DNA of 30,913 bases from Escherichia coli (GTDB lineage Bacteria; Pseudomonadota; Gammaproteobacteria; Enterobacterales; Enterobacteriaceae). Shown here piece after piece: positions 13,536 through 14,206 of this stretch. The notes below the pieces were generated by a model. It worked only from the letters and a program-made list of their open reading frames with translations, was not told the origin of the DNA and ran no database searches. The stretch lies in the NCBI RefSeq assembly GCF_003334355.1, contig NZ_QOWP01000039.1; one strand, written 5' to 3'. Positions within the stretch are counted from its first letter, which is position 1. Every line of letters starts with the position of its first letter. Made by a program: the position numbers and the translations under genes.

Positions 13536-13619
13536 TCAGTTCAGAAGCTGAAGCAGAAAGCGGATCAGTTCCAGCAGCGCAATTAACGCCCCTAGAACGA
13601 TGATTGCTTTATCAATCAC
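13536..13619 (-). CDS. dinQ: DinQ type I toxin peptide (27-aa form; nested longer in-frame starts up to 13685)
   Basis: Minus-strand translation from GTG 13619 gives (M)IDKAIIVLGALIALLELIRFLLQLLN*, a single-transmembrane peptide I recognise as DinQ. The same frame stays open upstream to ATG 13685 (49 aa), with further in-frame ATGs at 13664 and 13652. A LexA box lies upstream and the agrB complement lies in the leader. Confidence 0.7.
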   Translation of the reverse strand: MIDKAIIVLGALIALLELIRFLLQLLN

Positions 13620-13693
13620 CCGTTTTCTCCATGCGATGGAGTGAGAATGCATCCGCTTACTCATCCACTGCCTGTCACGGCGCATGTCTCATT

Positions 13694-13726
13694 GTTAGAT
13701 AAGAACTCTCTCACTCCGGCCAGAGC
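13694..13726. repeat. dinQ-leader copy of the roughly 33-nt agr repeat (the target of agrB pairing)
   Basis: gttagataagaactctctcactccggccagagc differs at one position from the agrB copy at 14124-14156 and at several positions from the agrA copy at 13894-13926. Confidence 0.8.
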
Positions 13727-13810
13727 ATCAGTTAACGGCACCACCCGTACTTCTGACCAGGACTTTGAAAGCGTTTATGCGCATTGCCAGAGTGAAAATG
13801 CCTCAGAGCT

Positions 13811-13830
13811 AACTGGATAATCATACAGTA
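13811..13830. promoter_or_regulatory. LexA operator (SOS box) at the dinQ promoter
   Basis: aaCTGgataatcataCAGta has the CTG-N10-CAG core with AT-rich centre and matching flanks (consensus taCTGtatatatataCAGta). It sits about 125-190 nt upstream of the nested dinQ starts on the minus strand. Confidence 0.6.
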
Positions 13831-13892
13831 CATGCAGGTTATAAAACCAGCACGTCCTTGCAATAGTTTCAGTATGGTATTAGCATTGATGC

Positions 13893-13975
13893 GTTAGATG
13901 ATGGCTATCTCACTCCAGTCAGAGCCACCAACTCAGGGCTGGAAAGTAAAAAACCGACGCAAAGTCGGTTTTTTT
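13893..13975 (+). ncRNA. agrA: AgrA small RNA (divergent repeat copy, weaker antisense to dinQ)
   Basis: Sigma70-like promoter (TTGCAA 13858-13863, 17-nt spacer, TAGCAT 13881-13886), a transcript of about 83 nt, ending at an intrinsic terminator (ccgac gcaaa gtcgg plus 7 T, 13954-13975). Confidence 0.65.
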
Positions 13976-14123
13976 ACATCCGGATTCGGACAAGGCTTAA
14001 TATGACGATGACCCAGTGAAAGTATATAAATCGTCACTGCGATATATACCGAAGTGCTCCCTCCGCCAGCTGAAGAAATCGCTAATTCTTGCAATGTTAG
14101 CCACTGGCTAATAGTATTGAGCT

Positions 14124-14206
14124 GTTAGATAAGAACTCTCTCACTCCAGCCAGAGCCACCAACTCAGGGCTGGAAAGTAAAAAACCGACGCAAAGTCGGT
14201 TTTTTT
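14124..14206 (+). ncRNA. agrB: AgrB small RNA (trans-acting antisense repressor of dinQ)
   Basis: Near-consensus sigma70 promoter (TTGCAA 14089-14094, 17-nt spacer, TAGTAT 14112-14117) and an identical terminator at 14185-14206. The first 33 nt are complementary, with one mismatch, to the dinQ mRNA leader at 13694-13726. Confidence 0.7.

Follow-up and report, generated by a model that had tools for sequence, protein, structure and literature searches.

Why should a sequence of about 34 nucleotides (nt) occur three times on one strand within 1.1 kb of Escherichia coli DNA, once in the leader of a toxin mRNA and twice at the 5' ends of small RNA (sRNA) genes? The question is raised by positions 13536-14206 of a 30,913-nt stretch of E. 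coli DNA (contig NZ_QOWP01000039.1 of assembly GCF_003334355.1; "the window" below is this whole stretch, and all positions are counted from its first letter). The region is, almost certainly, the K-12 dinQ-agrAB type I toxin-antitoxin locus, in which dinQ is controlled by LexA and the sRNA AgrB acts as repressor. It is placed between gor and arsR, the 881 bases from 13480 to 14360 show 100% identity to E. coli K-12 MG1655, and the coordinates of its three genes are those of the RefSeq annotation of NC_000913.3: dinQ (b4613; 13536-13619, minus strand; RefSeq/Prokaryotic Genome Annotation Pipeline (PGAP) annotation, open reading frame (ORF) list and NCBIfam NF041472), and the non-coding RNA genes agrA (b4712; 13894-13975, plus strand) and agrB (b4713; 14125-14206, plus strand). 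This locus of E. coli K-12 has been described by Weel-Sneve et al. 2013 (PMC3567139) and Kristiansen et al. 2016 (PMC5066626), and within the window there is no difference from the system represented by these papers and by RF02891 and NF041472. The finding itself is therefore already known and re-identifies a characterised SOS-linked type I toxin-antitoxin system, as the original prediction, made from the letters of the sequence, had stated; the K-12 identity, RefSeq, Rfam and NCBIfam all bear this out. What remains of the question is why one toxin leader faces two antisense RNAs, and here a comparison of E. coli genomes leads to a tentative reading.

The threefold repeat and the sRNA genes

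A repeat search of 13300-14400 recovered a 34-nt direct-repeat family with three copies on the plus strand. Copy 1 (13693-13726; TGTTAGATAAGAACTCTCTCACTCCGGCCAGAGC), taken as the reference, lies in the dinQ leader; copy 2 (13892-13925), at the AgrA 5' end, is identical to it at 26/34 positions (76%), and copy 3 (14123-14156), at the AgrB 5' end, at 33/34 (97%). Chance does not account for 33/34 matching positions within 1.1 kb, for which we roughly estimate an expectation of ~1e-13. Because dinQ and the sRNAs are divergently transcribed, the target and its antisense counterparts appear in the DNA as direct repeats. The minus-strand complement of copy 1 is the AgrB target, G88-A119 in the dinQ 5' untranslated region (UTR), at 13726-13695 and 76 nt upstream of the GUG start codon. 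Counted from the sRNA 5' end, the 32 nt of AgrB that make up copy 3 are 31/32 identical to the dinQ copy, with the one difference (G vs A) at 13718, while the 5' 32 nt of AgrA, corresponding to copy 2, differ from it at 7/32 positions. The direct-repeat observation is thus confirmed and its dinQ-agrAB interpretation supported. The predicted coordinates of copies 1 and 3 were in register; those of copy 2 (13894-13926) were one base out, the equivalent of 13694 being 13893. The further claim that the agrB copy is one base, and the agrA copy several bases, away from the dinQ-leader copy agrees with these counts.

Copies 2 and 3 are enclosed in a 114-nt duplication (13878-13991 vs 14109-14222, 88% identical), and AgrA is probably a tandem paralogue of AgrB. 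We also considered homology of the dinQ leader to the agr genes beyond the repeat, and rejected it: gapped local alignment gave only the 34-nt block. The Rfam AgrB match at 13695-13780 in the dinQ leader was not significant (22.7 bits, E = 0.6).

Both sRNAs are 82 nt long and match the full-length Rfam model RF02891 (AgrB) far above its gathering score of 40, AgrB with 108.4 bits (14125-14208) and AgrA with 106.2 bits (13894-13977). Their predicted folds agree with the RF02891 structure of a 5' tail, a stem-loop and an 11-bp terminator hairpin, with fold z-scores of -4.35 for AgrA and -5.45 for AgrB. In AgrB, the antitoxin in K-12, nt 1-20 are unpaired in both the minimum free energy (MFE) and centroid folds and nt 21-50 form the stem-loop; the AgrA tail makes a small 5' hairpin. 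A pattern search placed the agrA promoter at 13858-13886 (TTGCAA as -35, 17-nt spacer, TAGCAT as -10; plus strand) and the agrB promoter at 14089-14117 (TTGCAA, 17-nt spacer, TAGTAT; plus strand). The pattern TTGCAA-N17-TAG[C/T]AT thus has 2 matches where 0.04 would be expected, although the two sites are duplicates of each other, and the motifs end 7 nt before the annotated sRNA 5' ends. The intrinsic terminators, found by repeat search and folding at 13948-13974 (agrA) and 14179-14205 (agrB) on the plus strand, are identical 27-nt sequences (AAAAAACCGACGCAAAGTCGGTTTTTT) that fold as 11-bp hairpins followed by U runs. Neither promoter was found by a generic sigma70 promoter scan, because only 8/12 consensus positions match, and neither terminator by a generic terminator scan, because A/U pairs absorb the T tract; both negatives are threshold artefacts and not evidence of absence. 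Primer extension gave the same start for agrA and agrB, and the transcript ends have been mapped (PMC3567139). The expectation that each downstream copy carries its own sigma70-like promoter and an identical terminator was therefore correct, as were the predicted plus-strand 3' ends at 13975 and 14206, which are the RefSeq ncRNA ends of agrA and agrB.

The dinQ leader and its pairing with AgrB and AgrA

The dinQ coding sequence (13536-13619, minus strand; VIDKAIIVLGALIALLELIRFLLQLLN) encodes a 27-amino-acid (aa) single-transmembrane toxin from a GTG start that has been shown by experiment (PMC3567139). The ORF matches the NCBIfam equivalog NF041472 (toxin_DinQ) at 54 bits against a cut-off of 30 (E = 1.4e-14), and the peptide resides in the inner membrane, which it depolarises (PMC3567139). 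From the published GUG = G195 (PMC5066626) and the GTG at 13619, we placed +1 of the full-length mRNA at 13813 and the +44 processing site, which yields the translatable form, at 13770. The full-length (+1) mRNA of ~330 nt runs from there on the minus strand (13485-13813), its approximate 3' coordinate lying at a terminator shared with gor; a transcript of ~330 nt with +44 and +125 ends has been reported (PMC3567139). A terminator scan and an inverted-repeat search located this bidirectional hairpin, with a 14-bp stem, at 13489-13519 between gor (plus strand) and dinQ (minus strand), and it has been described as the dinQ terminator (PMC3567139). A LexA operator (TACTGTATGATTATCCAGTT; 13811-13830, minus strand) overlaps the dinQ -10 region and +1. 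The predicted box in it (TACTGTATGATTATCCAGT; 13830-13812, minus strand) is an exact match to TACTGT-N9-CAGT, with a published heterology index of 4.83, and dinQ is induced by ultraviolet (UV) light (PMC3567139). From its spacing to +1, the -10 hexamer is probably TATGAT at 13825-13820. The toxin peptide had been predicted to be LexA-controlled, and the overlap of the LexA box with the dinQ promoter and transcription start supports that view.

How the leader works has been shown in the literature, which in its LexA, +1/+44 and AgrB steps concerns this exact sequence, and the matching sequence features were confirmed here. LexA represses dinQ transcription through the operator overlapping the promoter, and DNA damage gives rise to the ~330-nt +1 mRNA. 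This form is translationally inert, in the published model because sequence 1 (mRNA U16-C28; 13786-13798) pairs with sequence 2 (mRNA 94-106; 13720-13708, inside the target in repeat copy 1), leaving sequence 3 (mRNA 167-178) free to close a hairpin over the Shine-Dalgarno (SD) region, or sequence 4 (182-187, with GGAG at 184-187; sequences 3 and 4 together at 13627-13647, all on the minus strand). Loss of the first 43 nt gives the +44 mRNA, in which the SD is open and the 27-aa membrane-depolarising DinQ is translated from the GUG. AgrB is expressed constitutively on the opposite strand, from a sigma70 promoter of its own that lies about 300 bp upstream of that of dinQ. Through its 5' ~32-34 nt it pairs in trans with +88 to +119 of the leader and sequesters sequence 2, so that the SD hairpin re-forms; the duplex is also a substrate for RNase III. 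In the published work, the +1 RNA was untranslated and the +44 species was the active mRNA, and deletion of agrB, but not of agrA, caused a UV sensitivity that was suppressed by deletion of dinQ (PMC3567139). Experiments by selective 2'-hydroxyl acylation analysed by primer extension (SHAPE), electrophoretic mobility shift assay, S30 translation and RNase III cleavage showed that AgrB closes the SD hairpin of +44 dinQ, blocks its translation in S30 extracts and forms with it a 34-bp duplex cut by RNase III, whereas AgrA does none of these (PMC5066626). In our folding, the MFE structure of the +1 RNA pairs nt 16-28 with 94-106 (1:2) and 173-178 with 182-187 (3:4), and the 3:4 pairing is also present in the +44 RNA when the AgrB site is blocked. 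The predicted probability that the SD is unpaired was 0.05 in +1, 0.21 in +44 and 0.02 in +44 with nt 88-119 blocked.

The two sRNAs differ in how well they fit this target. AgrB is complementary to dinQ mRNA +88 to +119 at 31/32 positions and AgrA at 25/32, and their core duplexes with the target have energies of -58.2 and -42.7 kcal/mol, compared with -63.6 kcal/mol for a perfect complement and -23.2 ± 2.8 kcal/mol for 300 shuffled 36-mers against the whole dinQ mRNA. When intramolecular structure was taken into account, binding to the +44 leader brought an ensemble gain of -35.5 kcal/mol for AgrB and -21.8 kcal/mol for AgrA. Duplex energies of the full-length RNAs (-58 to -87 kcal/mol) are inflated, in that they ignore intramolecular structure, and the core-duplex and cofold values are used instead. 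Both downstream copies are thus antisense in trans to the minus-strand dinQ leader, as had been predicted, with duplexes far below those of the shuffles, and the comparison of duplex energies that was proposed as a check on the prediction separates AgrB from AgrA.

The prediction that only agrB is an effective repressor is upheld by the sensitivity to UV that follows deletion of agrB (PMC3567139) and by SD closure with agrB but not agrA (PMC5066626); the number of mismatches as the sole reason for it is not. Four of the six differences between AgrA and AgrB are transitions that keep G·U pairs, so thermodynamics alone would not leave AgrA inert. With one exception, the differences fall in nt 7-14, within the 20-nt tail that is unpaired in AgrB, and given this position in the unpaired 5' tail, the inactivity of AgrA is more likely due to a failure to nucleate pairing with K-12 dinQ than to total duplex energy. 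Positions 7-14 of the sRNA would then be the determinant of specificity. The conserved half of the repeat (CTCACTCC.GCCAGAG) holds sequence 2, for which pairing with sequences 1 and 3 is also required, and the octamer at sRNA nt 7-14 lies outside this constraint.

Octamer alleles, agr slots and loss of repeat copies

To judge the specificity octamer we compared 18 intact E. coli loci. In repeat copy 1 it lies at 13701-13708 (plus strand) and reads AAGAACTC in K-12; its equivalents are GATGGCTA in agrA (13900-13907, plus strand) and AAGAACTC in agrB (14131-14138, plus strand). The dinQ leader carried one of five alleles (AAGAACTC, AATGGCAT, AATGGTAT, GACGACTA or GTGGGCAT), and in 18/18 loci, K-12 included, one agr copy matched the allele of its own dinQ. 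Octamer differences between the leader and this cognate copy were G·U-compatible, save for one A·C mismatch in O157:H7. The cognate duplex had an energy of -47 to -61 kcal/mol over 31 nt, and the second copy, where present, was weaker (-36 to -47 kcal/mol). The cognate copy occupied the agrB slot in K-12, AR_0015, GN02461, APEC O2-211 and JCH767, and the agrA slot in RM10466, 14EC017, QA-1986 630, AGR6137, EC17CM2, M25631H and O157:H7. The K-12 AgrB allele is also found in the agrB slot of RM10466-type genomes, but as a non-cognate copy (-36.7 kcal/mol). Conversely, the K-12 AgrA allele reaches -50.3 kcal/mol with the GACGACTA leader of other strains vs -38.1 kcal/mol with its own leader, and in strains A22 and SF-088 the only agr present, a cognate one, is an allele near-identical to it. 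By our estimate, roughly half of the genomes with three copies have their cognate copy in the agrA slot, a figure extrapolated from identity classes of which 1-3 members each were verified. T1TAdb chooses the more stable of two candidate antisense RNAs and does not discuss slot switching. A search of the accessible literature for dinQ/agrB combined with phylogroup, ST131, gene conversion or covariation returned no paper on octamer co-variation or locus collapse.

One position behaves differently from the octamer. At 13718, 13917 and 14148 the dinQ copy has G and the agr copies have A (CCGG vs CCAG), which places an A·C mismatch in the duplex. This mismatch at 13718 is kept in nearly every lineage examined, whatever the octamer allele, with JCH767 as the sole exception; it might stem from the sequence 1:2 pairing constraint in dinQ, or from the limit of a gene-conversion tract.

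The number of repeat copies varies as well. In an alignment of an evenly spaced sample of 58 chromosomes from the E. coli complete genomes, about 71% had three copies, as in K-12. About 14% had one agr gene, with a 231-bp unit lost between the agrA and agrB repeats, and in the 6/6 such loci examined the surviving agr copy was cognate. The remaining share, about 15%, had a single repeat copy with the proximal dinQ leader on its left flank and the agr 3' half with its terminator on its right. This collapsed form has lost every agr promoter as well as the dinQ promoter with the LexA box and leader nt 1-87, much as if ~13727-14156 of the window were deleted; no sigma70-like promoter was found in it, and the agr terminator that it keeps is bidirectional. 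Among ~5,420 complete genomes, 829 fell below 80% coverage of the locus and 841 records held the junction at >=99% identity. These two classes were used for counting, as the coverage of the junction query was unusable, pieces of intact loci having been joined by BLAST. ST131 and Nissle 1917 are among the collapsed genomes, in which dinQ is still annotated by PGAP and Rfam AgrB is still matched at full length (91.6-108.4 bits). One study of a B2 strain calls the dinQ locus "conserved" on the basis of a BLASTN search.

Several cases suggest that collapse is derived and recurrent, with no fewer than two origins on the chromosome and one on a plasmid. A 199-bp deletion simulated in the intact, B2-like SF-088 reproduced the collapsed FDAARGOS_1262 at 397/400 positions. 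FORC_082, whose background is K-12-like (99.1% identity), has undergone the same collapse, with arsR kept and the K-12 octamer, and plasmid pYLPK5a is collapsed relative to pM171-1.2; both are independent occurrences. With every promoter gone, dinQ-agr is probably silenced in collapsed strains. The promoter-less ST131 locus encodes a DinQ with a Leu-to-Gln change in the transmembrane helix (ALIAQLEL, WP_023363328.1), a single example that is compatible with relaxed selection. B2-like strains are also without arsR and arsB, and arsC directly follows the agr terminator; this is an independent deletion beside the dinQ-agr locus.

Taken together, these patterns lead us to a tentative reading, which we consider a little less likely than not. 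The agr slots may represent a polymorphic pair of antisense RNAs of alternative specificity, with an octamer that co-varies with that of dinQ, and the direct repeats may form a built-in deletion cassette. Every intact genome would then keep exactly one cognate copy, K-12 AgrA would be a near-cognate partner of the dinQ allele in other strains, and a single recombination between the target copy and an agr copy would take out the dinQ promoter together with the LexA box and the agr promoter(s). It is also conceivable, if rather doubtful, that AgrA is no more than a duplicate of AgrB that is decaying and has no function. Such decay would agree with reports that AgrA gives no protection from DinQ toxicity (PMC3567139) and leaves both SD SHAPE reactivity and translation of K-12 +44 dinQ unchanged (PMC5066626), and with its 7/32 differences from the K-12 target. 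AgrA has, however, an intact promoter, terminator and Rfam-consistent structure, and the better fit of K-12 AgrA (GATGGCTA) to the GACGACTA leader than to its own, the near-identical sole copies in A22 and SF-088, and the seven strains listed above in which the agrA-slot copy is the better match and the agrB-slot copy mismatched all speak against decay. A purely passive nature of the three copies, for example as a recombination scar or as the remnant of a mobile element, with no function at the RNA level, can practically be dismissed. The repeats do serve as recombination substrates, as the 231-, 199- and 430-bp inter-copy deletions in natural genomes demonstrate, but copies 2 and 3 coincide exactly with the 5' ends of sRNAs that have been mapped by experiment, Rfam has a curated family for them, the target co-varies with the sRNA, and function has been shown by genetics and biochemistry, the published agrB deletion, complementation and in vitro binding refuting a passive role.

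A different kind of alternative concerns the manner in which AgrB acts. By analogy with tisB/IstR-1, it was originally speculated that AgrB works mainly by blocking a standby site or by preventing +44 processing, and not by closing the SD hairpin (PMC3567139). We regard this as unlikely, although, as in tisB, the AgrB target is 76 nt upstream of the start codon, and the +44 species accumulates in the agrB mutant (PMC3567139). In SHAPE experiments the SD region of +44 dinQ closes upon binding of agrB, mutational data tie the stability of the SD hairpin to translation (PMC5066626), and SD accessibility falls in silico from 0.21 to 0.02 once nt 88-119 are blocked. The two mechanisms are not mutually exclusive. 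Several points weigh against the account that we give of the locus, in which SD-hairpin closure by AgrB is joined to a specificity determinant at sRNA nt 7-14. In our MFE fold of the +44 RNA, the partner of sequence 2 is nt 45-58 and not sequence 3 as published, and the SD opens only partly, whereas the 2:3 pairing is supported by SHAPE (PMC5066626). The functional steps all rest on two papers (PMC3567139 and PMC5066626), our own contribution being analysis of sequences. AgrA is not fully inert, as deletion of agrA raises full-length dinQ RNA 3-fold (PMC3567139). Finally, octamer co-variation could come from gene conversion among the repeats rather than from selection on pairing; selection for a cognate antisense RNA is not yet separable from such conversion, and the functional meaning that we attach to the comparative patterns is accordingly conditional.

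Relatives of the locus and biological meaning

The dinQ mRNA matches 2,326 plasmid records at 60-80% identity, annotated mostly as dqlB or dinQ, spanning Escherichia, Klebsiella, Salmonella, Enterobacter and Citrobacter; 1,988 of these records are predicted to be conjugative. Each of the five plasmid loci examined has one Rfam-AgrB-like RNA (48-68 bits), and in 4/4 intact loci the 5' ~32 nt of the plasmid agr matches its own leader ~125-130 nt upstream of the coding sequence, with duplex energies of -51 to -58 kcal/mol. The plasmid dqlB-agrB/dinQ loci (IncX1, IncX3, IncN and others; Kristiansen 2016, PMC12317039) therefore resemble that of K-12 in having a homologous leader, toxin and AgrB-like sRNA, and differ from it in being plasmid-borne, with a single agr copy and a different 5' specificity sequence. 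For the dinQ-like locus of pOXA-484, both toxin-antitoxin and plasmid-stabilising function have been shown (PMC12317039). We considered whether K-12 AgrA might provide immunity to plasmid toxins and rejected the idea: against the leaders of the four intact loci, AgrA reached -39 to -43 kcal/mol and AgrB -36 to -46 kcal/mol, compared with the -51 to -58 kcal/mol of the plasmid's own agr.

Among other type I systems, tisB-istR-1 is like dinQ-agrB in that an SOS/LexA-regulated small hydrophobic inner-membrane toxin is made from an inert primary mRNA that is activated by 5' processing, and in that a divergent trans-acting sRNA pairs far upstream of the ribosome-binding site (RBS), with RNase III cleavage (PMC5066626, PMC3567139). 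The toxin and sRNA sequences are unrelated, and tisB has one antitoxin sRNA, not two tandem paralogues. IstR-1 competes with standby ribosomes, whereas AgrB re-closes the SD hairpin. Tandem paralogous pairs with discriminating sRNA specificity occur in zorO-orzO and zorP-orzP. In zor-orz, both toxin and antitoxin are duplicated, while in dinQ-agrAB the antitoxin alone has a second copy, and the one toxin leader has to fit one or the other. Like dinQ-agrB, the zor-orz and shoB-ohsC systems combine small hydrophobic toxins and long 5' UTRs with a non-overlapping divergent sRNA that pairs upstream of the RBS (PMC5066626).

The window also has Rfam matches above the gathering score to three further sRNAs, all on the plus strand: GadY at 29493-29606 (150 bits), ES205 at 23643-23714 (105 bits) and ES036/CssrF at 5075-5115 (42 bits).

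The re-identification of dinQ-agrAB adds nothing new in itself. As far as the sampled sequences go, the comparative patterns are real, and they could matter modestly for the understanding of the locus. If our reading of them is true, AgrA would have to be seen as an allele of alternative specificity and no longer, as in the text-book view, as a degenerate paralogue, and the octamers would provide natural compensatory evidence for the pairing of AgrB with dinQ, with nt 7-14 as the specificity seed. Because dinQ and AgrB are called in about 15% of E. coli genomes despite the loss of their promoters, including B2 strains of clinical or commercial importance, some caution with annotation would be advisable in studies that use the presence of toxin-antitoxin genes as a proxy for their function, for example in persistence or the SOS response.

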